Counted from the stretch's first letter, positions 5 to 59,791 are shown. The stretch is DNA of 64,000 bases from an uncultured cyanobacterium (GCA_963793425.1 CAWCAG010000005.1:1888001-1952000); one strand, 5' to 3'. Program-made: numbers and translations. Notes: a model not told the origin generated them from the letters alone.

Positions 5-1792
5 ATGGAAGATTATTTAGGGAAGATTAATGGTAAAGCTTCGCGGGTAAGGAAAAGAATCCTTAATAGTAATGGCATTCAGCAACGTTACTACGCATTA
101 GATAAGCAACAAAATACTACTTATAGTAATAGTCAAATGGCAGCTTATGCTGCTCAAGATGCTCTTTTAAAGAGGAATTCAGAAGCAAAAGGAATTGATT
201 TACTTGCTTGTGCCACAAGTTGGCCAGATTTATTAGTACCAGGGTTTGCTAGTTTGGTACATGGAGAGTTGCCAGAATTATCTCCCTTAGAAGCTATTTC
301 TACTCAAGGTGTTTGTTGTGCAGGGGTTGCTGCTTTAAATTACGCTGTTTCTCAAGTGCAATTAGGTAAGAGAAACAATGCTCTGGCGATCGCCTCTGAA
401 TCGGCTTCTCGTTTATTTAAACATAGTAACTTTGAAGCAGAAGATAAAGTTAAAAATGGTGGCAAGCTCCCTTTTGATACAGAATTTCTTCGTTGGATGC
501 TTTCCGATGGTGCGGGTGCTTTTTTAATTCAAAATTCTCCTGCTAAGGAAGGTATTAGTTTAAAGATAGAGTGGATTGAATCAATTTCCTATGCTAATAC
601 TTATCCTTTGTGTATGTATGCGGGGACTGCTGATGAAACGGGGAGGAAAAGTTGGCTAGATTTCCCTTCTTATCAAGATGCTGCTGCTGCTGGGGCGATT
701 AATTTACGGCAGAACATTCGCTTGCTGGATCAGGTGGTTAAGTTAGGGGTGGAAGGTTGGTTAAAATTGATTGAAAGGGGAAAGGTTAAGCCAGAAGAAA
801 TCGATTGGCTTTTATGTCACTATTCTTCCCATTTTTTCCGTAGCCAGATTGTTGATTTATTGGAGCAAGGTGATTGTTTAATTCCTGAATCTAAATGGTT
901 TACCAACCTTTATACGAAGGGGAATACTGGTTGTGCTTCTATTTACCTGATGTTGGAAGAGCTATTTAATTCTGATAAGTTGAAAGCGGGAGAAAAAATC
1001 TTTTGTTTTGTTCCGGAAAGTGGTCGTTTTACTACTGCTTACTTAATGTTAACGGTGGTATCTTCTCAACAGGAAAGCGTAACTTTAGAACCTCCGGCCT
1101 TAAGTTTTCCCCTTAATAGTATTACAGCGAGTGATGCTAATACTGTGGCAGCTAGTTTACTAAGGCAATTAGCTCTAGTTTGGTTAGAGTTTGAGCGCAA
1201 CTTAAATTCAGTCTCTTTAATTCGGAAACTCTATCGCAATGAGTTTACCATTAAAGATTATCAGGCTTTATTAAGTAACCTACATCCTCAAGTTGTAGAA
1301 GGGGCGAGATGGATAGCCCGTGCCGCTTCTAATATGAAGGATTTTCAGCTTCGTTCTACTTTTATTTGTCATGCCCAAGATGAACACAGAGACTATCAAA
1401 TGTTGGAGCGGAATTATGTCTCTGTAGGGGGAGAATTGGCAGAAATTGTTAATGCAGAAAAAAATCTTGGTTCGGAGGCACTTTCTGCTTTCATTTTCCA
1501 TCAAGCATCCCAAGAAAATCCTCTCGATTTAATTGGCAGTATGTTTATTATTGAAGGTTTAGGTAATCAATTAGCAGGAAAATGGGCTTCTTTGATTAAA
1601 CGAACTCTTAATTTAACTGAAGAGCAAGTTTCTTTTTTAAGCTATCACAGTGACAATGATGAATCCCATATTGGTAAATTAGCAGCGATTATTAATGCCC
1701 CTTGGTTAACCCCAGAAATTGCTCAACGCATTATTAAGACTGCTCAAGTTACTGCTCGTTTATATCAACTACAATTAGAAGAAGTTAAATAA
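5..1792 (+). CDS. StlD/DarB-like beta-ketoacyl synthase III fused to a C-terminal heme-oxygenase-like (iron-containing redox enzyme) domain; probably 5'-truncated by the window edge
   Basis: KAS III triad motifs QGVCCAG (Cys), LCHYSS (His), KGNTG (Asn), plus FLRWMLSDGAGA and FVPESGRF typical of the DarB group. The last ~220 aa carry HAQDEH, IIEGLG and HSDNDESH. The frame is open to the window start. Confidence 0.85.
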   Translation: MEDYLGKINGKASRVRKRILNSNGIQQRYYALDKQQNTTYSNSQMAAYAAQDALLKRNSEAKGIDLLACATSWPDLLVPGFASLVHGELPELSPLEAISTQGVCCAGVAALNYAVSQVQLGKRNNALAIASESASRLFKHSNFEAEDKVKNGGKLPFDTEFLRWMLSDGAGAFLIQNSPAKEGISLKIEWIESISYANTYPLCMYAGTADETGRKSWLDFPSYQDAAAAGAINLRQNIRLLDQVVKLGVEGWLKLIERGKVKPEEIDWLLCHYSSHFFRSQIVDLLEQGDCLIPESKWFTNLYTKGNTGCASIYLMLEELFNSDKLKAGEKIFCFVPESGRFTTAYLMLTVVSSQQESVTLEPPALSFPLNSITASDANTVAASLLRQLALVWLEFERNLNSVSLIRKLYRNEFTIKDYQALLSNLHPQVVEGARWIARAASNMKDFQLRSTFICHAQDEHRDYQMLERNYVSVGGELAEIVNAEKNLGSEALSAFIFHQASQENPLDLIGSMFIIEGLGNQLAGKWASLIKRTLNLTEEQVSFLSYHSDNDESHIGKLAAIINAPWLTPEIAQRIIKTAQVTARLYQLQLEEVK

Positions 1793-2655
1793 TGTACAAT
1801 CGCCAAAATCCCGATGCTTGGCAAGTATTGTATTTTGACCAAGCTATTCCTGTAGACTCCGTAGCTAAGGAATATATGATTGCAGATTTGCAGAGTTGGA
1901 CACGCAATTACTTACTTATCCCGATCAAAGTTTTTGCTAACATTATGTTAGCTCTAATCATGACTTTGAAACGATTGCTACCTTTCCAGTTCAAAGCTTA
2001 CACTTTAATGCACCGTGTCGCCGCATTTTTCTTAAAAAACTTTGTTTCCCCGGCAGCTTGTTATTTAATTATCAGACATATTTGCCTTGGTTCCAATATT
2101 GTTAATTTTCTCATTGATAACAGTCCTAATCCTGAAATCGAAAAATCACAACTTTATCCTCGCGAAATAGATGATTTAGCAGCTAATGCTTTCTTAGAAC
2201 ATGATCTGATTCTCTATAACTTTGTTTGGGATTATAATCAAGCAGTAATTAAAAATCCTCACTGGCTAAAAGAAGTGCAAGCAAGAGGAATTAACTATGA
2301 TGCTATTCAGCCAGTGAAAGTAGAAGTTGATTTTAACAAGAATCGCTGGTTAAGAGTTTTAGATTTAGAATCTGCTTTAGAATTATTCAAAGTCTTTTAT
2401 TCTCTTTGCCTAACTAGTGAGGAATTTGCTAGGGCTGTTTTATCACTACAACTTGATGAAAACTTTGCTGTTTATGTAAGCCAATTAACAGGAGATTATA
2501 ACTGGAATCATATTATCTCTAATCGCAATCCTTTAGTACCTAATAGCCATTTTCAAGCAGCTAGAAATTTGATGGTACACGGAGTAGTTAGTGAATACTT
2601 ACACCGTTATTTGGAAATAAGAAAAGGAGATGGCGAAGTAATAAGTAATAGGTAA
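1792..2655 (+). CDS. Uncharacterised protein (DUF6999-like), translationally coupled to the ketosynthase fusion
   Basis: 287-aa ORF with TAATG stop/start overlap at 1790-1794. The family name is recalled from similar ketosynthase clusters and is not verified. Confidence 0.6.
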   Translation: MYNRQNPDAWQVLYFDQAIPVDSVAKEYMIADLQSWTRNYLLIPIKVFANIMLALIMTLKRLLPFQFKAYTLMHRVAAFFLKNFVSPAACYLIIRHICLGSNIVNFLIDNSPNPEIEKSQLYPREIDDLAANAFLEHDLILYNFVWDYNQAVIKNPHWLKEVQARGINYDAIQPVKVEVDFNKNRWLRVLDLESALELFKVFYSLCLTSEEFARAVLSLQLDENFAVYVSQLTGDYNWNHIISNRNPLVPNSHFQAARNLMVHGVVSEYLHRYLEIRKGDGEVISNR

Positions 2656-2720
2656 TAGGCATTGGTAACAAGTTAAATAAAAGTCCAATCTTTCAAACCC
2701 CTGTCGTTAGATTCAGCAAC

Positions 2721-2834
2721 GTAGGGTGTGTTGGCGCTGCGAAAAATTATGGCAAGTCTACCACAATCTTGATTCAGCGCTTAACGCACCGTCTTCGCTT
2801 TTTCAATAATATCTAGGAAACGAGTCGCCCCTAC
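2721..2834. repeat. REP-like GTAG-footed imperfect palindromes between convergent genes
   Basis: GTAGGGTGTGTTGGCGCTG (2721) pairs with CAGCGCTTAACGCACC (ends 2790). GTCGCCCCTAC at 2824-2834 is a reverse GTAG-footed arm. Confidence 0.55.
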
Positions 2835-51976: not shown

Positions 51977-52313
51977 CCTGGTTTGCCTTTATATACGTTT
52001 GTAAATAGAGGGCAGTATTATTAGTTTTTTGCTCTCGCCTAATAAAATTTCTTTTTTAGCAAATTGAGAACCCCTAATACATTATATGAATAGCTATGTT
52101 TGCGTTAGGGTTTGCTTTCGTGTTCGTTTACTACTAATAAAAGTTGAACATAACATATACCAAAAAACAGGGAGTAGGGAGTAGGCAGCAGGCAGCAATG
52201 ATCAATGATTATTGATTAGTTTTAACCATAACCAACCTATGAGGCAACCGAGAAGATAATGAGGGAAGTCTAACCAAGAAAAGGTTGTTCCTAAAAATAA
52301 GCGCCCGAATAAT

Positions 52314-52598
52314 TTAAACTTGTTGTTCAAATAGTTCTATCAATTCTTGAGGGGTAAATTCAAAACTTTCAAGCCACCAAGTAGTTAAAGCTAACAACCG
52401 CTTTGCTGTCAAACTTGGTGGGCGATAGGAATCACCTTGAGGATTTTGCATCCAATGCCTTACCGTATCTTCACTTACTCCGGCAAGTAAACCAATTTTA
52501 TAGTAAGTAATGGGGTAGCGAATGGCAAATTGTCTAGGTTCAATGCTGCCCCACAGCCAGTTTTGAAAATCTGCTACTTCATCAGTATTCGGTGTCAT
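52314..52598 (-). CDS. Small putative HTH DNA-binding protein
   Basis: ITYYKIGLLAGVSEDTVRHW fits a helix-turn-helix pattern. Confidence 0.65.
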   Translation of the reverse strand: MTPNTDEVADFQNWLWGSIEPRQFAIRYPITYYKIGLLAGVSEDTVRHWMQNPQGDSYRPPSLTAKRLLALTTWWLESFEFTPQELIELFEQQV

Positions 52599-52712
52599 TT
52601 TTTTAGTTGGTGACGCTTTTGATTTGAGCTAAATTGAAAACAAAATGAGACACTGGAAAGAAGAGCAAATCAAAGATTTGCTCTATTAATGTTTTGAAAC
52701 TTGTCTATTCAT

Positions 52713-52761
52713 GTGCCATTATGACGTGCTTTTTTGCTTATGTCAATATGGCACGTCATAT
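52713..52761. promoter_or_regulatory. Operator-like inverted repeats between the divergent HTH genes
   Basis: TATGACGTGC (52720-52729) and GCACGTCATA (52751-52760) are a perfect inverted pair. GTGCCAT (52713-52719) and ATGGCAC (52748-52754) are a second pair. Confidence 0.65.
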
Positions 52762-52768
52762 TTGTTAT

Positions 52769-53023
52769 ATGAAAAAGGATCGAAGACCTCAAGAGAGTAA
52801 TTCTTTAATAGAAGCCCTGAGAATCAAGCAGACTAATCTTTCTCAGACTGAATTTGCTGTAAAATGTGGCATTCCTTTGCGTACCTACCAACGCTGGATT
52901 TATGGGGAAACTGAAGCAAAGCTAACACCAACCCAGTGGAAAGCAATGATCAAGTTGTTAGATATTCAATCTTTTGAGGATATACCAGACGATTTTGGTC
53001 CGGTGAATCAAGAAGAAGAATAG
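52769..53023 (+). CDS. XRE/Cro-family HTH transcriptional regulator
   Basis: LR....LSQTEFAVKCGIPLRTYQRWIYGET. ATG at 52769 is preferred over the TTG at 52694. Confidence 0.8.
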   Translation: MKKDRRPQESNSLIEALRIKQTNLSQTEFAVKCGIPLRTYQRWIYGETEAKLTPTQWKAMIKLLDIQSFEDIPDDFGPVNQEEE

Positions 53024-53025
53024 GG

Positions 53026-53112
53026 ATTATTGATAAATTAAGAGATGAATTACCAGAAGCTTTGACTGTTGTTAGTCAAACTGCTGTTCGCATCCGTAAA
53101 ACTAATTTTTAG
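53026..53112 (+). pseudogene. Possible 3' remnant of a DUF5615 PIN-like toxin gene
   Basis: The start-less frame reads IIDKLRDELPEALTVVSQTAVRIRKTNF*, resembling the 'el....tvv....vRiR' C-terminus of that family. Recognition is by eye only. Confidence 0.4.
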
Positions 53113-53130
53113 TTATTTTTAGACAACAAA

Positions 53131-56100
53131 TTAATGCTTACTGGTGATTGCTTGTTTGATTTTTCTCCACTGTTGCCGTAGGACAATGGCTAATTTTCTT
53201 TGGAAGCGTTTGATACGGGCGATGAGGGGAAAGTAGCGGACTTTTTCAGGATAAACGGGAATAAAATCTAAGTTCTCTTTGCTGTAGCGGACTGCTAGAC
53301 TTCTGGCGAGAGGAAATATTTCATCATTATAAATGTTTACTTGGAGTAGTTTAATTAGCTTTTCTAAAGCTTTTAAATTACCGATTTTACCCAAAGCCTC
53401 TACCGCCCTTGATCTAAAATAACTATTAGAGTGATTAAGAACAGCAATTAAAGCTTCTACTCCTTGGGCATTGCCGATTTTACTCAAAGCCAATGCCGCA
53501 CTCAATCTAACATCACTATCAAAGTGATTAAGAGCGGCAATTAAAGCATTTACTGCTTGAGTATTTCCTATCTTACCTAAAGCCTCTGCCGCACTCCATC
53601 CAACATCACTATCAGAGTGATTAAGAGCAGTGATTAAAGCATTTACTGCTTGAGTATTTCCTATCTTACCTAAAGCAGATGTCGCACTCAATCTAACATC
53701 ACTATAAGAGTGATCAAGAGCAGTAATTAAAGCTTCTACTGCTTGGGCGTTGCCAACTTTACCCAAAGCCTCTGCCGCACTCCTTCTAACATAAATATCA
53801 AAGTGATTAAGAGCAGTAATTAAAGCTCCTACTGCTTGAGTATTTCCTATCTTACCTAAAGCCTCTGCCGCACCACTTCTAACATCACTATAAGAGTGAT
53901 TAAGAGCAGTAATTAAAGCTCCTACTCCTTGGGCATTACCAATTTTACCCAATGCAAATGCCACACTCAATTTAACATCACCATTAGAGTTATCTAAAGC
54001 AGCAATTAAAGCTTCTACTCCTTGGGCATTACCGATTTTACCTAAAGCAGATGCTGCAATCCATCCAACATCACTATCAGAGTGATTAAGAGCAGTAATT
54101 AAAGCTTCTACTACTTGGGCATTATCAATTTCACCTAAAGCATTTGCTGCAATCCTTCTAACATCACTATTAGAGTCATAGAGAGCGGTAATTAAAGCTT
54201 CTACTACTTGGGCATTATCAATTTTACCTAAAGCATTTGCTGCAATCCTTCTAACATCACTATTAGAGTCATAGAGAGCGGTAATTAAAGCTTTTACTCC
54301 TTGGGTATTACCAATTTTACCCAAAGCCTTTGCTGCAATCCATTTAACATTACTATCAGAGTCATCAAGAGCAGTAATTAAAGCTTTTACTCCCTGGGGG
54401 TTACCAATTTGATCCAAAGCTAATGCAGCACTCAATTTAACAAAGATATCAGAGTCATCTAAAGCAGCAATCAAAGCTTCTTCTACTCCTTGGGCATTAC
54501 CGATTTGACCCAAAGCAGATGCTGCAATCTTTCTAACATTACTATCAGAGTCATCAAGAGCAGCAATTAAAGCTTCTACTCCCTGGGGGTTAGTTGTTTG
54601 ACCCAAAACATCTGCCGCACTCCTTATAACAAAGATATCAGAGTGATCAAGAGCAGCAATTAAAGCTTTTACTGCTTGGGCATTACCAATTTTACCCAAA
54701 GCATCTGCCGCACTCGATCTAAAATAACTCTCGGAGTCATTTAAAATAGCAATTAAAGCTTCTACTCCTTGGGCATTACCAATTTTACCCAAAGCCTTTG
54801 CTGCAATCCATTTAACATTACTATCAGAGTGATTAAGAGCAGTAATTAAGGCTTCTACTGCTTGGGCATTACTTATTTCAGCAAAAATCACTACAACAGA
54901 AGTTACAAATTCAGCATCAGGATAAGCAAGCCAAAACTGATAAACTTCCTCAACAATCCTCCCAACTGAAGCATCCTCAACCTCTTTCCCCTCAGCAACA
55001 CATCGCCCCGCCAACAACAATAAAGTCCGAAAAATATCATCCTTCTCCCCCATAATCGCCTGCAACAAGGGCAAAGGATCATCCATCAATCCTGCGAACA
55101 AAGTTAAAGTCTCATGCCAATCAAAATCCCAAAAATGTTCCTTCGCCAAAGCCACACCATTACTTGCATAGTTTAAATAAGCTGCGGTCAAATACTCCTG
55201 AAAAGTGCGATGCAAAAACAGATACTTATTTCCATCCCTGTCTAACTTCTGAATAATGCCATCCTCTTCCGTCAACTCCCCAATCAACTCCGTAGCGGTA
55301 ACATTGCGAAAATCACTACCACAATCCCCCCGCAAAAACTCTTCAATCTTCTCTCTCAACTCCCGCAACTCAAAAACCTCTTGACTCTGGCAACTAAACT
55401 CATAAGCCAAAAACTCCAACAATTCCGTCTTCGCCACCACCCAACCAGATTCAGCCCCCAAACGCCGATTATCCTTGCGCCATTGACTGAGCATATACTC
55501 AACCGCTTTTTCATAAACCTGACCACGTTTAGCCGGGAGAGTAATACCCTTTTCTTGATAAAGGCTGCAAAGTAAAGATAACAGTAAAGGATTCTGTGCC
55601 AAACCACTGATTTGCGGTTTCTGGCGTAACTCCTCAATTAACCCAGAAGCAGAAATATCTTTCTCTTCTCCCTTCCCCAGAGAAACTGAGAGAGATTCCT
55701 CCGCATTCTTAAACCAAGTCTCAATATACTTTTCCGTTTGCCCTTGATTAAAAGGCACAATCTCCACATCCTTCCCCCCAGCAATAAAACTGCCCCCATA
55801 ACCAACAATGCGGGAGGTGCAGATTATCGGACAAGGATAATATTTGGCGAAGCGGTTTAACTTGTCTTTTAGTTCCTGGCGCTGATCCTTCGGCACTTCA
55901 TCTAAAGCATCCAACAACAGCAAACATTCACCCTTAGCTAACTTATCTTCCAAGAGATGGGCAAGGTTAGGATAACTATACCGATAATCCCGTTGTAGAA
56001 GTTGGGGAATAATCTCAAAAATTTCTCCTTCCCTTTCAGCTAACTCTGAAAGCCTGAATAGCAAGGGAAAAAACTGTTCCGGAATAGTTTTTTCCTGATT

Positions 56101-56760
56101 TAAAAGCTTTTCCCTTTCTTCTTGGGCTACCCTCAAAGCTTCTCGCCGCAACAAAGTTGACTTTCCCATGCCCGGATCTGCTAAAACCATGATTCTGTTA
56201 TGGTTTCGCTTCGCTTCTACCCAATCAACTTGAGTTTTCCTTGTTTCTTCAACTATTCCTTTCAGGGCATAAGCTTTTTTTAATTCCGCTTCCGACTCGC
56301 TATAACCCCAAGTAGTCTCAACTTCGTGGCGATATCTTCTTTCTAAAGTGACTTGAATGGGAATGTACTGCTCTTTAAAAATAAAACTATTCCGCGTGTG
56401 GAATAGTTTTAGATATTTGTATTCCTTTGCAACCTCCTCAAGAAACTGACAAACTTCTTCTGTCGTCGGCGGCTCTGATTTTTTGTTAGCAGGTTCAGAA
56501 TCACTAGGTAAGTTAGAAACTTGTTCTTGCAAAACCTCTCGAATAACTTGCTTCAGTCTTTCTGCTTCAAAACCTTGATAAGTACGATTGTCAAAGGTGA
56601 TTTTTTCCGCAGTCAAGTTAAAATTCCCTTCACCCAACTGCACATTATTGAAATCCCCGGTAATATTCAACTCAGCTTTTAATTGAGCTAAATCATTCTT
56701 ACTATGTTTACCCGCAACAATACGTTGTAAAATTTCGCTCCATTTAGAGGATTTAGCCAT
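53131..56760 (-). CDS. NLR-like STAND NTPase: EAD10-like/RHIM-like N-terminus, NACHT domain, 16 HEAT repeats
   Basis: Walker A ADPGMGKST, Walker B LLLLDALDE, CTSR, NPLLL, FLHRTFQEYL. HEAT/PBS-lyase-type 31-aa repeats follow. Confidence 0.92.
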   Translation of the reverse strand: MAKSSKWSEILQRIVAGKHSKNDLAQLKAELNITGDFNNVQLGEGNFNLTAEKITFDNRTYQGFEAERLKQVIREVLQEQVSNLPSDSEPANKKSEPPTTEEVCQFLEEVAKEYKYLKLFHTRNSFIFKEQYIPIQVTLERRYRHEVETTWGYSESEAELKKAYALKGIVEETRKTQVDWVEAKRNHNRIMVLADPGMGKSTLLRREALRVAQEEREKLLNQEKTIPEQFFPLLFRLSELAEREGEIFEIIPQLLQRDYRYSYPNLAHLLEDKLAKGECLLLLDALDEVPKDQRQELKDKLNRFAKYYPCPIICTSRIVGYGGSFIAGGKDVEIVPFNQGQTEKYIETWFKNAEESLSVSLGKGEEKDISASGLIEELRQKPQISGLAQNPLLLSLLCSLYQEKGITLPAKRGQVYEKAVEYMLSQWRKDNRRLGAESGWVVAKTELLEFLAYEFSCQSQEVFELRELREKIEEFLRGDCGSDFRNVTATELIGELTEEDGIIQKLDRDGNKYLFLHRTFQEYLTAAYLNYASNGVALAKEHFWDFDWHETLTLFAGLMDDPLPLLQAIMGEKDDIFRTLLLLAGRCVAEGKEVEDASVGRIVEEVYQFWLAYPDAEFVTSVVVIFAEISNAQAVEALITALNHSDSNVKWIAAKALGKIGNAQGVEALIAILNDSESYFRSSAADALGKIGNAQAVKALIAALDHSDIFVIRSAADVLGQTTNPQGVEALIAALDDSDSNVRKIAASALGQIGNAQGVEEALIAALDDSDIFVKLSAALALDQIGNPQGVKALITALDDSDSNVKWIAAKALGKIGNTQGVKALITALYDSNSDVRRIAANALGKIDNAQVVEALITALYDSNSDVRRIAANALGEIDNAQVVEALITALNHSDSDVGWIAASALGKIGNAQGVEALIAALDNSNGDVKLSVAFALGKIGNAQGVGALITALNHSYSDVRSGAAEALGKIGNTQAVGALITALNHFDIYVRRSAAEALGKVGNAQAVEALITALDHSYSDVRLSATSALGKIGNTQAVNALITALNHSDSDVGWSAAEALGKIGNTQAVNALIAALNHFDSDVRLSAALALSKIGNAQGVEALIAVLNHSNSYFRSRAVEALGKIGNLKALEKLIKLLQVNIYNDEIFPLARSLAVRYSKENLDFIPVYPEKVRYFPLIARIKRFQRKLAIVLRQQWRKIKQAITSKH
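53377..54867 (-). repeat. Intragenic tandem array of 16 x 93-bp HEAT-coding units
   Basis: 1491 bp = 16 x 93 + 3 (one unit has an extra Glu). Consensus AQ(A/G)VEALI(T/A)AL.(H/D)S.S.V...AA.ALGKIGN. Confidence 0.92.
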
Positions 56761-56769
56761 AGCTAACCT

Positions 56770-57175
56770 TTACGGCTTATTCGAGGAATGATCAGTAGAA
56801 TCTTCGTTATGCTGAATATTGACGTTGTTATTGTTATTGCCAAACTGAACATTATTGCGATCGCCTGTAATCGTCGGACTGTTAGAAAGAAGTCCGCTAT
56901 TAGAAATAGTATCTTGGCTTTGATTAGCAGGATTAATGGGCTGCTTTTCCGGAGCTGGATCTGATTTTCTGAACGTGGCGTATTCCCAACAAGACTGCCA
57001 AACCAGTAAGCCCCCACAATACTAGCTGAATCAAGTCTGTTAGCCCTTGAATAACATTACTATTCGCTTCGACAAACTGTAACAAAACTGGCATCCATTG
57101 TTCAGCCGATAACGCTAAAGCAGCAAGTAGTAAAACTACCAAGGTTGGAACGATCCACCTTGAAGAATTGTTCAT
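56770..57175 (-). pseudogene. Frameshifted two-TM protein with an Asn-rich RHIM-like C-terminus (candidate NLR effector), about 134 aa if restored
   Basis: The 80-aa ORF (two hydrophobic helices) continues in the +1 frame as YATFRKSDPAPEKQPINPANQSQDTISNSGLLSNSPTITGDRNNVQFGNNNNNVNIQHNEDSTDHSSNKP*. That stop lies 9 nt before the NACHT ATG. Span 406 bp = 135 codons + 1 nt. Confidence 0.75.
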
Positions 57176-57291
57176 AGCAAAATTAAGTAAATTGAGGAGT
57201 CAACCATATTAGTAACCATGGTAGCCAAAAAAGTTTTGGCTAGTGGCTAGTGGCTAACGGCTAGTTGTTCTCACCCTAGCTCCCCATCTCC

Positions 57292-59073
57292 CTATTTCCC
57301 CAACTCCCCATCTCCAGGAGAAGTATCAAGAAAAGGGGAACTTTTTGGTTCAGAATCTTCTGGGGATGAATTAGAAGGATTAGGATTAGGAGAATTATTT
57401 TGCAACAAAAAAGTTGCTTCAAAGCGAGTACTTTGAGAATCTATAACTGTTGTCGTAATACCAAAAGCACGAACCCCATTAAGTAAATCCTTTTGCCCTT
57501 CCGGAAAAGCTAAAGTTCCTTTTTTGGCCATAAAATTCTCGACATCAAAAAACAACTCACTATTAACCGGGGCAAAGCCTTTTTTAACTACTTGCTTAAA
57601 CAACTGATTCGATGACAAATTACGTTTCGGTTTTGGTAAGATTTTGTTACTTATTGGAGCGCCTAAAGAAAAGAAAAATACATCTTTTGATAGCCAACCT
57701 CGTACAGCTTCTATACCACCCAGGGGAGATGTCCAATTAACCACAGGTTGCCCCCCTTGTTGAGCAGATTTCACCTGAAATTGATATCTTGTACCCATGG
57801 CTTCATCTAATTGTTGTAGGGCTTTCTCTCCGCTAGCACGATTTTGAGTTTGGGCAACGGTAATTAAAGCAGCCCCCAATTTTACCCCACCTCTATCAGT
57901 AAAATTAATTAAGTTATCTTCAGTAATAGGAGTCAAGGCAAAGGCGAAATCTTCTCCTAACCAAGGGAGAAAATCTTCTTGCCAACTCATGCCCGTGTTT
58001 TCCTGAATAACATTAGCAATAGTCTCTTCCCCAAAAGGTAAAAGGGGCAACAACTCCGCTTCACTGTCCCAACCTTGCCATTGAGTAGGAAGATTTTGCC
58101 CAGCAAAGAAAAATAAAGTCTGTTGGGGTAAGTGGGAAGCTAAACTCTTTTCCTTAAACTGGGTTAAATAATTCCCAAAAGAATTAACTGGCTGCATAAA
58201 TTCTCCCGGTTTTCCCCAAATTATCCCTTCCCAATGCAGAGATTCTGGGGTTAAGCTTAAGCTGCCTGTCACTCCTTGCCGATATTGAGTAGTAGATTCT
58301 GGGGCAGGAGCAAGAGAATTAGTTTTGGCGGTGGCAACTATTGTCGGAAAATGCCCATAAAAACGAGCAAAATCAACTTTTTTGCCTAATTGTCTCAAAG
58401 CTTTTTGATAACTAGAATCAGCTTCTAAAGATGTCTTTTCTTGGTAGCTATCAATCACTTTTTCCATGGCTTGGGAGTTGTTAGCAATAACCAAAAAACT
58501 TTTAATAATTGTTAGGGAATATCTTTGAGATTGACTATTTTGAATCTCTTCAATCTCCACTCCTTTATAGGTGCGTCGCAGTTTCTTACTTTCCAGGTCA
58601 GAGTTAGGAGAATCCAAAAGCTGCCCTGCTTGGACGGAATTCTCCATCGGTAAAATAAATACCATTGGCTTAACCAAATCCTCTGAAGGAGAAGCATTCG
58701 GTACAATTAAGGCAGATTGAGTTGGGGGCAAATAAGCAACGGTGATCTCCTCTCCTACCCAAGGTTGGATATGGGTTTCATAACTATAACCATTGGCTTG
58801 CAAAAAAGTATTGCTAAGCTCAGAAAAATACTTTTTAATCCTCTGTTGACTTCCCTTTGTCCCTAACTGTTGCAATTGCTGCCATTGTTCTTCATCCGTA
58901 GAAATTGAGGCAGCAAAAATCACTTCTTGGGGAACTAATTCTGCCCCCGTTAGCTTTTGCGCCGCAAAAAAATAGGGCCGTACCAACAACCAATAAATTG
59001 CTGTGCCACTACCGAGTAAAATAGCCGTACCTAAAGTCGGTAAGAGAAAGCGCCTAAATTTTTTCTTGACCAT
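57292..59073 (-). CDS. DUF3352-like membrane-anchored protein
   Basis: N-terminal TM helix, GAELVPQ, IQPWVGEEIT.A, YKGVEI, D.LPWLGE.FAFA. Confidence 0.8.
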   Translation of the reverse strand: MVKKKFRRFLLPTLGTAILLGSGTAIYWLLVRPYFFAAQKLTGAELVPQEVIFAASISTDEEQWQQLQQLGTKGSQQRIKKYFSELSNTFLQANGYSYETHIQPWVGEEITVAYLPPTQSALIVPNASPSEDLVKPMVFILPMENSVQAGQLLDSPNSDLESKKLRRTYKGVEIEEIQNSQSQRYSLTIIKSFLVIANNSQAMEKVIDSYQEKTSLEADSSYQKALRQLGKKVDFARFYGHFPTIVATAKTNSLAPAPESTTQYRQGVTGSLSLTPESLHWEGIIWGKPGEFMQPVNSFGNYLTQFKEKSLASHLPQQTLFFFAGQNLPTQWQGWDSEAELLPLLPFGEETIANVIQENTGMSWQEDFLPWLGEDFAFALTPITEDNLINFTDRGGVKLGAALITVAQTQNRASGEKALQQLDEAMGTRYQFQVKSAQQGGQPVVNWTSPLGGIEAVRGWLSKDVFFFSLGAPISNKILPKPKRNLSSNQLFKQVVKKGFAPVNSELFFDVENFMAKKGTLAFPEGQKDLLNGVRAFGITTTVIDSQSTRFEATFLLQNNSPNPNPSNSSPEDSEPKSSPFLDTSPGDGELGK

Positions 59074-59440
59074 AACCCTAAAGATGCAACCCTGACATAT
59101 TCACCTTAAAACCTCATCCTCCCTTAGAAAAGGTGAACATAACTAGTATCGATAGCAACAAACCAGGGAAAAGAAGTAATCCTAACATTGATAGTTCAGT
59201 AGCACTCATCAGCTTTAATCTCCTAACACGCTTCTTTTAAAGTAGCTTGTGAGCAAAAAAAAGTTGGTAAATTCAAGGATTTATTTGCAATTGGTATCAA
59301 GATGTTAAGCTGTCAGGTATTTAGATTGTCTTGCTAGGGTAAGGGAGCAGGGAGTGGGGAGCAATAAAGACATCGGGGAAAATTAGTTAAGGCAAATAAG
59401 GGTAAGGATCTACAATTGAGCTTGGTTACCCATAGAACTT

Positions 59441-59791
59441 ATGCAAAATACTCGTTTAAACAATCTCTTCGCTTTAACCAGCACTCAACTTAATCAATTC
59501 TTCAGCAATCCTTGGCGACGTATAGCACTTGTCCTGCTTAGCTTATTGTTAGGTTTCTTTCTTGGTACAGCCATTACTAGTACCGCCGGACAAACTTCTG
59601 ATTGGGATGTCATCGCTGCTGCTTTTGTGGTTTTGTTTACAGAAATAATTAGCCGCTTTGTTTATGGTCGTAAACGAAATCGTACTGCTGAAGAAGTAGT
59701 TAAATCCTCGCTATTGGTAGAGCTGGTTAATAATTTGAAGATTGGTGTTACCTATGGTTTATTCGTGGAAGCATTTAAACTAAATTCTTAG
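59441..59791 (+). CDS. ycf20: Ycf20/DUF565-family protein
   Basis: MQNTRL, NPWRR, K.G..YGLFVEAFKL.S. Confidence 0.88.
   Translation: MQNTRLNNLFALTSTQLNQFFSNPWRRIALVLLSLLLGFFLGTAITSTAGQTSDWDVIAAAFVVLFTEIISRFVYGRKRNRTAEEVVKSSLLVELVNNLKIGVTYGLFVEAFKLNS

Follow-up and report, generated by a model that had tools for sequence, protein, structure and literature searches.

Positions 53131-57175 of a 64,000-nucleotide stretch from an uncultured cyanobacterium (GCA_963793425.1 CAWCAG010000005.1:1888001-1952000; 'the window' below is this whole stretch) hold two co-oriented genes on the minus strand: a small gene for a predicted membrane protein and, 9 nt further on, the gene of a sensor that resembles NOD-like receptors (NLRs). 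The C-terminal tail of the small protein and the N-terminal domain of the sensor share a short motif, and this matched pair is real and specific. We put a probability of roughly 0.6 on the locus being a two-gene, NLR-type abortive-infection module of a known matched-motif design that would work in the steps proposed below. The small gene carries one extra base, and the system is probably disarmed in this genome. The locus is laid out as follows.

53131-56760, minus strand: NLR-like sensor gene, an open reading frame (ORF) of 1209 aa with Pfam EAD10, NACHT and a HEAT array
56533-56760, minus strand: EAD10 domain, NLR residues 1-76 (Pfam PF19954 positions 1-77 of 77; AlphaFold2 model)
56614-56667, minus strand: NLR-side copy of the motif, NITGDFNNVQLGEGNFNL, residues 32-49, strands 1-3 of the model (translation, AlphaFold2)
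55705-56193, minus strand: NACHT NTPase module, residues 190-352, with P-loop GMGKST and Walker B LLLDALDE (Pfam, sequence)
53311-54963, minus strand: HEAT/PBS-lyase-type repeat array, about residues 600-1150, the presumed sensor part (Pfam HEAT_2 and HEAT_PBS; HEAT-type matches in PADLOC and NCBIfam)
56761-56769, minus strand: spacer of 9 nt from the stop of the tail frame to the NLR ATG (sequence)
56770-56961, minus strand: shifted-frame part of the small gene that encodes its C-terminus, 63 codons and TAA, linker and motif tail (translation)
56815-56874, minus strand: effector-side copy of the motif, TITGDRNNVQFGNNNNNVNI (translation)
56936-56975, minus strand: zone holding one extra base (open frames, alignment with the relative P0005, contigs of four runs)
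56933-57175, minus strand: N-terminal part of the small gene, 80 codons and TAA, two-helix membrane module and out-of-frame end (ORF; homology)

The sensor is a NACHT-type STAND (signal transduction ATPase with numerous domains) NTPase. Pfam NACHT covers residues 190-352 (28.8 bits, cut-off 26.7), the P-loop and Walker B motifs are in place, and a repeat array follows, with 13 stretches of the protein matching HEAT_2. The N-terminus of this core NTPase is formed by EAD10, one of the effector-associated domains (EADs), which Pfam recognizes with 47 bits in the whole protein and 52.9 bits in residues 1-80 alone (cut-off 24.1). Further matches in PADLOC and NCBIfam are of HEAT and NACHT type only. 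A search with residues 1-180 returned 95 proteins, mainly cyanobacterial NACHT-HEAT, whose N-terminal slot is filled by EAD10, trypsin-like, CHAT, TIR or other EADs according to precomputed Pfam lists.

The shared motif and the EAD10 domain

The NLR and the small-gene tail have the core ITGDxNNVQxG in common, with 9 of 11 residues identical. Codon by codon, five positions are identical, four differ silently and two are replacements; the silent differences, which affect 4 of the 9 identical residues, speak against a recent duplication of the DNA. An initial annotation, made from the sequence alone, had described this core match with its silent codon differences, the two motif strings and their positions, and the co-orientation and 9-nt spacing of the genes, and all of these hold. 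Local alignment of tail and NLR scores 56, with 11 of 20 columns identical; when the 63-aa tail was shuffled 20,000 times with its composition preserved, 2 shuffles reached this score. Among the 84 stop-to-stop ORFs of at least 80 aa in the window, the NLR is the tail's best non-self match (56, next 37). Across the genome of 5,284,537 bases, a degenerate DNA pattern for ITGDxNNVQ, allowing one mismatch at most, finds two sites, both in this pair, and its reversed control finds none. Against 136 EAD10 domains, the cognate domain ties for first place (score 56; median of the other domains 28).

The motif shared between the effector's C-terminal region and the NLR's N-terminal region extends over 20 aligned residues, where at least 15 aa were asked for. 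Both segments are rich in N, Q, G, V and I and poor in K, P and L, as is typical of bacterial amyloid signalling sequences (BASS): the tail segment of 21 residues contains N 8, Q 2, G 2, V 2, I 2 and no K, P or L, and the NLR segment of 20 residues contains N 5, G 3, L 2 and neither K nor P. In the closest full-length EAD10-NACHT-HEAT relatives (34-46% identity over residues 1-180) the EAD10 cores are ordinary, for example GKYTVNIGQGQDIRIGD and GKFNTNIGQITGEDIQIGD, and the core version ITGDFNNVQLGEGNFNL is peculiar to the window NLR among the relatives compared. The tail thus follows the odd core of its own partner.

The palindrome GCGATCGC, which we take to be the cyanobacterial HIP1 word, occurs 29 times in the window against 0.13 copies expected, and one copy (56857-56864) encodes the G-D-R of the effector-side motif.

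Thirty cyanobacterial EAD10 domains yield the consensus ...QLGKYNVNIGxGxxIHIGDRIY..., with helices on either side. Modeled by AlphaFold2 from the alignment of these 30 domains, the EAD10 of the window adopts an alpha+beta fold (pLDDT, the predicted local distance difference test, 82.9; pTM, the predicted template-modelling score, 0.69), with helices at residues 3-15, 21-30 and 64-78 and strands at 31-33, 39-42, 45-48, 53-56 and 59-62. The shared motif spans strands 1-3 of this model. Foldseek found no match for the model in the PDB at E<=0.001 and a wide VIA fold search reached a best Z of 5.0; neither result shows that the fold is new. EAD10 has been described as a mixed alpha+beta adaptor domain (Kaur et al., PMC7159879, PMC8195603; here and below, citations refer to the searchable text of the sources). 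In the authors' profile comparison EAD10 matches itself only, unlike the Death-like EADs (Kaur et al., supplement); the accessible supplements of PMC7159879 do not mention EAD10.

To which motif class does the pair belong? The initial annotation had called the motif RHIM-like, a label that we rejected. Pfam RHIM (PF12721) matches neither the NLR N-terminus nor the tail at E<=1, none of the 30 EAD10 domains at E<=10 and nothing in the genome of the window; 2 of 401 cyanobacterial genomes match at E<=0.01. The EAD10 family does have a RHIM/BASS3-like element, [IV][QH][IV]GD, which sits downstream of the shared segment. By eye, BASS3 entries such as GKYNVTVQGGKGVQIGDNNTQ, printed among the BASS training sequences in the supplement of PMC8086366, run in a common register with the canonical EAD10 core GKYNVNIGQGQDIHIGDRTYQ. 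Of the 30 profile-ascertained EAD10 domains, 17 fit a spaced pattern that we derived from BASS3, as do 104 of 136 in a larger, biased set, and the pattern has no match in 409,086 residues of background ORFs. The window NLR and tail do not fit this pattern.

The shared segment belongs to a class with the pattern G-[DE]-R-S-V-x-I-G-G-x-x-S-G-S-x-I-I-T-G-D-x-N-x-V. Segments of this class follow the membrane module in relatives of the small protein that are described below, both free (P0005, P0055, P0086) and fused to NLRs (P0024, P0038, P0104, L122, L124), and two small helical proteins (L062, L110) end in the same class. On a profile built from ten hand-picked post-module segments, the window tail scores 12.1 bits (none of 2000 shuffles as high) and the NLR EAD10 3.9 bits (2 of 2000 as high). 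The class resembles BASS6 entries (...SGERSVAVGG..SG.I.TGD...) by eye; this likeness and the one to BASS3 are visual and pattern-based, as opposed to profile tests with BASS sequences. To judge from these comparisons, typical EAD10 members appear to have a BASS3-like core, and the core of this pair appears BASS6-like. The EAD10 domain at L022:1501-1737 (+) has a GERAVAIGGSADEAVIVTGERNII-type segment in place of its beta-core (29.6 bits on the ten-segment profile), which suggests that EAD10 helices can frame different BASS-like cores.

The split small gene and its surroundings

The small gene is read in two pieces. Its first frame (56933-57175, 80 aa) terminates at a TAA. The tail frame, in which no ATG, GTG or TTG start occurs, can be read from 57021 as far as a TAA at 56770-56772. 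Joining the two requires one surplus base to be taken out within the doubly open stretch 56936-57021. Homology to P0005, an intact relative of 125 aa, holds the first frame to about residue 70, which narrows the extra base to about 56936-56975; the likeliest site, as read from the sequence, would be the A4 run at 56965-56968. P0005 matches both halves in the same order and in one frame, the N-terminal part with 32 of 66 residues identical (E 1e-20) and the tail with 11 of 21 (E 4e-4, ...SNIITGDRNRVQ). That a single intact protein matches both halves supports the view that the two pieces in the window are one frameshifted gene, as had been supposed when its frame was first restored.

Independently assembled contigs of four public runs span 56600-57300 without an indel and with one synonymous difference, at 56734; the runs stem from one sediment-metagenome study that may be the source sample and thus do not represent independent populations. 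The extra base is real and present in read-derived DNA. A low-depth contig of 263 nt from one run (X4) aligns to 56618-56730 and shows 10 differences across the part that encodes EAD10 before it diverges; it comes from a second strain in the sample or from a paralogue. With an extra base separating the membrane module from the tail, full-length effector is most likely not produced. We read the small gene as a recent pseudogene, and the death pathway first proposed for the locus is probably not operative here. A broken copy fits the cost of carrying such a toxin.

Instead of being a lesion, the extra base could act as a throttle if tRNA-Lys only rarely slipped by +1 on the A-AAA-A run and so produced scarce full-length toxic effector, which we consider very improbable. 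The A4 run is the likeliest shift site, a Lys codon there can re-pair one base on into the tail frame, 63 codons of this frame are open up to a point 9 nt ahead of the NLR start, and the extra base is found in the contigs of all four runs. Yet no known stimulator (a rare or stop codon, or an upstream Shine-Dalgarno-like element) is evident on reading the sequence, the intact relatives P0005 and P0055 encode both parts in one frame, and the split gene of another locus (L115, below) looks like the decay of toxic genes. The stretch was found in no RNA run.

The flanking genes are ordinary (DUF3352, HTH_3, Uma2, VanY, DUF565). GC content is level over 48-62 kb and thus gives no compositional sign of recent transfer. 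Rfam has no match across 52000-59500, and a promoter and terminator scan of the locus gave signals no higher than shuffle level. Between the DUF3352 gene and the small gene lies a heptamer-like repeat (gccacta units, 57233-57267) that is present in many other contigs of the four runs, with a depth spike and loose ends; given these copies, it is probably a dispersed short repeat.

A two-helix membrane module and the recurrence of matched pairs

A word-index homology search with the 80-aa N-terminal part (P0002) returned the query itself only. When 1.84 billion representatives were scanned in full with HMMER, 103 relatives came up at E<=1e-3, so the blank result reflects a limit of sensitivity. 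In 96 of the 103 the match begins within the first 22 residues, and the family signature, in window numbering, is W27, F34, N38, I42-Q-G-L45, Q50 and W54. The module of about 65 aa is covered by no Pfam, PADLOC or NCBIfam model; a Pfam scan of P0002 at E<=1 gave UPF0114 alone (E 0.035, below cut-off) and no SLATT match, P0005 and P0003 match no family at E<=0.001, and a protein atlas gave unnamed clusters only (0.83-0.84). One member is on record as 'hypothetical protein' of a Nostocales strain. In the AlphaFold2 model of P0005, helices span residues 2-35 and 39-64 (block pLDDT means of about 72-92) and are followed by a low-confidence tail (pLDDT 51-66).

Among the 18 scanned relatives longer than 250 aa, NACHT or NB-ARC lies behind the module in 13, whose sensor parts are FGE-sulfatase, TPR or CARDB, and in a further relative, P0024, the module is joined directly to a STAND ATPase that has HEAT repeats. 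Placed ahead of NACHT or NB-ARC, the module occupies the position of NLR effectors. Free-standing relatives bear beta-rich tails. An ITGD-type motif follows the module in 11 of 75 relatives of up to 250 aa, against 0.4 expected from shuffles (maximum 3 in 200), by a pattern that was written after examples had been seen. By homology and model, the two-helix membrane part is a real effector-type module, in line with the two-transmembrane (2TM) effector of the initial annotation. The latter had also held that a two-transmembrane effector with a HEAT sensor was not a described combination; the module proves to be unnamed yet recurrent, and P0024 unites the two in one protein.

We inspected 13 metagenome loci with members of this family. 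In L123, a 122-aa member ends in ...INGLTQGNNNQVNNNF, which matches LNGFVQGANNTVNNVF in the next gene; that gene follows 40 nt on and starts MFKNYGRYLNGFVQGANNTVNNVF. In L125, L126 and L127, which are near-identical to one another, a tail ...YTGAVGENNTVHMTIN is followed after 6-13 nt by a 604-aa protein starting ...SKFLGAVGENNTIIQIIN, and GAVGENNT stands in both partners. To judge from these translations, the motif varies between loci and is the same within each pair. In L117, L119, L121 and L124 the module is fused to NACHT and FGE-sulfatase, and a gene of this 2TM-NACHT-FGE-sulfatase build in L115 (481-3209, plus strand) is split into two overlapping ORFs of 175 and 714 aa. L116, L118, L120 and L122 either run off a contig end or give no information.

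Matched tails also recur when the search starts from EAD10. Of the 109 EAD10 loci that we assembled, a Pfam-model search of 401 genomes supplied 31, and the other 78 came from a pattern-seeded scan, which is biased to canonical cores. Their six-frame ORFs hold 137 distinct full EAD10 domains, 127 of them N-terminal, and 86 N-terminal EAD10 genes have a co-oriented upstream ORF of at least 60 aa ending within 250 nt. In 13 of these 86, the window pair included, the last 45 residues of the upstream ORF match the EAD10 core above the 99.9th shuffle percentile (null mean 18.6, sd 4.4, maximum 44); several of the 13 loci are mutually related and so not independent. The effectors are Peptidase_C14 in six (L003, L010, L037, L038, L083, L099), CHAT in three (L032, L061, L087), small helical Bell-like proteins with a hydrophobic N-terminal helix in two (L062, L110), a 250-aa protein with no domain in L028, and the membrane protein of the window. 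The matched tails span Pfam EAD10 positions ~33-66, that is, the strands without the helices.

Canonical tails are not partner-specific (cognate rank 6 to 97 of 136), and the two divergent pairs of the window's own genome are: the cognate ranks first of 136 in L003 and ties first in the window. As far as these alignments go, tail and partner co-diverge in both. The L003 pair consists of a Peptidase_C14 gene (1762-2739, minus strand) and an EAD10-GUN4 gene (244-1758, minus strand), in whose product Pfam finds no NACHT. The Peptidase_C14 tail reads GKNVVGSIKGDNIQVGDR against GKNVVGKIEGQDIQIGDR in the EAD10-GUN4 core; the protein ends in ...GKNVVGSIKGDNIQVGDRT, 30 nt upstream of the gene for the EAD10-GUN4 protein with ...GKNVVGKIEGQDIQIGDRN.

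Two further observations concern EAD10 genes at large. At L023:1498-2316 (-), a 273-aa protein with several hydrophobic segments has the EAD10-core tail SKYNINIATGTDISIGDNY (Pfam EAD10 positions 42-65, 25 bits), and no obvious partner gene lies downstream. Strong clustering of EAD10 genes is seen in some cyanobacterial genomes (G284:C4:159047-191523, G171:C1:2711033-2729405, G332:C2, G022:C89), with up to 12 matches in ~32 kb, which suggests large islands of EAD10-linked effectors and sensors.

These recurrences bear on whether sensor and tail are linked at all. The tail is Asn-rich and of low complexity, it fails Pfam EAD10, its gene is broken, and no orthologous locus was found in 40 related genomes or in genome contigs; on this view the tail would be a remnant in decay, or would match the ordinary EAD10 NLR next to it by chance and low complexity. 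This we regard as the least probable of the readings considered, a long shot: few shuffles equal the alignment score (2 of 20,000), the motif stands at two genome sites only, the silent codon differences tell against a fresh DNA copy, one intact relative matches both halves of the small gene, and the architecture recurs with co-varying motifs in unrelated loci.

Relation to known systems and proposed mechanism

A matched motif at the C-terminus of an effector and the N-terminus of its NLR, which the initial annotation had likened to BASS and HET-S-type pairs, is indeed the architecture of these systems and of EAD-coupled effectors. EADs occur on the core protein and again on its effector, often in the adjacent gene, and adjacent copies are most alike (Kaur et al. 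2020, PMC7159879). Like EAD-coupled effectors (Kaur et al., PMC7159879, PMC8195603), the window has EAD10 at the N-terminus of a core NTPase and a related copy on the adjacent effector. Unlike them, the effector has a beta-core piece of about 20-30 aa without the three helices, and this piece fails Pfam EAD10. By the rule of Kaur et al. 2020 the effector therefore lacks a second EAD10 copy; what it has is a 20-aa local match to its partner. The searchable text of both EAD papers treats EAD10 as an adaptor domain and draws no link to amyloid motifs.

BASS pairs are collinear in 91% and at most 10 bp apart in 57% of cases, and BASS also occur with CHAT, TIR2, hydrolase and cyclase effectors and in all-in-one fusions (Dyrka et al. 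2020, 10.1101/2020.01.06.895854). The window pair is likewise adjacent and collinear, on the same strand with a gap of 9 nt. Bell/NLR pairs (10.1101/2020.01.06.895854) come close to it: a small membrane-directed effector lies directly upstream of an NLR, an N/Q/G/V/I-rich motif of about 20-25 aa connects the effector C-terminus to the NLR N-terminus, and the pairs are found in multicellular cyanobacteria, the same phyletic setting. By contrast, the Bell domain has about 100 aa and five helices with a hydrophobic N-terminal one, whereas the window module is predicted to have two helices in about 65 aa and forms its own family. The BASS motif sits at the extreme N-terminus of the NLR, and the window motif begins at residue 32 within a 77-aa EAD10. 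Moreover, the NLR-like proteins of Dyrka et al. 2020 were defined with TPR or WD repeats, whereas the window sensor has HEAT, and the effector gene of the window is frameshifted, unlike those of Bell/NLR pairs.

A BASS11 pair provides a precedent in function: templating from Agp to Bab causes abortive infection in E. coli (Ibarlosa et al. 2024, 10.1101/2024.11.07.622273). Bab/Agp resembles the window in that adjacent executioner and sensor genes have a common motif, and its templating results in membrane-directed abortive infection. The TPR-GreA/B-C-PIN (TGP) sensor class to which Agp belongs carries EAD10 at the same position in cyanobacteria (Kaur et al. 2021, PMC8195603). The window differs from Bab/Agp in its NACHT-HEAT NLR sensor, its motif and its effector fold, and is known from sequence alone. 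HET-S/NWD2 of Podospora follows the same logic, in which an oligomerising NLR nucleates a beta fold and this fold converts a membrane-attacking effector's tail, and its effector domains occur both fused to NLRs and free with a motif, as in the window family; it has no sequence relation to the window pair, and the HeLo domain is not a two-helix hairpin. All-in-one bacterial NACHT/STAND proteins (Kibby et al. 2022, 10.1101/2022.07.19.500537) likewise combine NACHT and HEAT-type repeats with a swappable N-terminal effector or EAD, whereas in the window a motif couples the sensor to an effector that has its own gene. In the searchable text of that paper, transmembrane regions are listed on the sensor side as opposed to N-terminal effectors, and the two-helix module is not seen.

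The matched-motif NLR/effector design is thus already known. What the sequence evidence presents as new is a variant: an unnamed, widespread two-helix effector family, a motif within a predicted folded EAD10, and EAD10 cores that are BASS-like. EAD10 is nowhere called an amyloid motif in the searchable literature, which excludes figures, preprint supplements and subscription journals that may list EAD10-type N-termini or the module.

From these comparisons we propose how an intact copy might work. The sensor is the EAD10-NACHT-HEAT STAND NTPase, and the executioner would be the small protein, an N-terminal two-helix membrane hairpin followed by a linker and a beta-prone tail of about 30 aa, whose end (ITGDRNNVQFG...NVNI) copies strands 1-3 of the sensor's EAD10 beta-core. 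A ligand would be bound by the HEAT array, upon which the NACHT modules would oligomerise; oligomerisation is an established property of STAND/NLR proteins. Several EAD10 beta-cores would thereby be brought together. By analogy with BASS11 Bab/Agp and HET-S/NWD2, the clustered cores may nucleate a stacked beta assembly that recruits and orders the disordered effector tails. The hairpins so clustered would damage the membrane, and the infected cell would die. The role of such a bacterial system is presumably phage defence. Amyloid-like templating is plausible in this pair by analogy; taken as a mechanism on its own, we rate it just short of an even chance.

The main rival to amyloid-like templating is docking, in which the tail would join the folded EAD10 by beta-sheet augmentation or strand exchange, a homotypic adaptor contact without self-propagating cross-beta structure. 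It suits the modeled EAD10, a compact alpha+beta domain with a five-strand meander, and the confinement of matched tails to strand positions ~33-66, as expected for strand addition; EADs are described as adaptors that recruit effectors by homotypic contacts (Kaur et al., PMC7159879), and the fused 2TM-NLR forms retain the motif in cis. Set against this, the short N/Q/G-rich tail, which contains no K, P or L and is disordered in the P0005 model, resembles proven amyloid signalling motifs. The fit of the BASS3-derived pattern to 17 of 30 EAD10 domains, against none in the background, points the same way, as does the fact that a proven amyloid motif, BASS11, takes the EAD10 slot in TGP proteins. 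The profile comparison of Kaur et al., where EAD10 matches itself and not the Death-like EADs, also counts against docking. We consider docking unlikely, though clearly less so than the throttle or the absence of a link.

Several observations weigh against reading the locus as a templating abortive-infection module. On the sensor side, the motif is modeled within a confident folded domain, as opposed to the free terminal peptide of classic BASS and HET-s. The element [IV][QH][IV]GD is absent from the shared segment, degenerate in the NLR (ITFDN) and missing in the tail. Scoring the pair with EAD10 models, a check proposed with the initial annotation, succeeded for NLR residues 1-76, which lie above the cut-off, and failed for the tail, which gives no Pfam EAD10 match at E<=1 and is absent from the partial matches of our own EAD10 profile (iE<0.05). 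Fused 2TM-NLR proteins keep a similar motif in cis, which is unexpected if its sole role is hand-over between two proteins. The effector gene is frameshifted in every contig seen, so that no function can be claimed for this copy. A second proposed check, that adjacency and motif co-variation be conserved, turned out positive for analogous pairs (L123, L125-127) and negative for orthologues: a 2TM profile matched the own genome only among 401 cyanobacterial genomes, the small-gene DNA gave a 28-nt match in one same-genus genome only among 40 related genomes, and NLR residues 1-330 gave 60 pattern matches in genome contigs, none of them confirmed. Because no orthologous locus was found, the conservation of adjacency rests on the analogous pairs. 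Lastly, the searchable literature yielded no fibril, binding or toxicity data for EAD10, the motif or the membrane module.

A broader claim joins two parts. Instead of an ordinary adaptor domain, EAD10 may be a helix-capped cassette that displays a BASS-type amyloid signalling motif, BASS3/RHIM-like in most members and BASS6-like in some, among them L022 and the window NLR, and the two-helix module may represent new, widespread NLR-controlled death executioners, functional analogues of Bell, HeLo and MLKL, fused or free with co-varying motifs. For both parts together we would give rather less than even odds, somewhat below those for templating. NLR-to-effector amyloid hand-over has been established for fungi and, since 2024, also for a single defence system of E. 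coli. As it is found fused to many STAND sensors, the unnamed executioner family probably represents a death module in common use. With the motif inside a domain that is predicted to fold, one has to ask how such a domain passes from its folded resting state to one that templates; if the cassette claim is true, activation would involve the release or stacking of the beta-core from that resting state. The EAD and amyloid-signalling literatures would then describe one device, and a sequence bridge between EAD10 and BASS would merge two separately described concepts.

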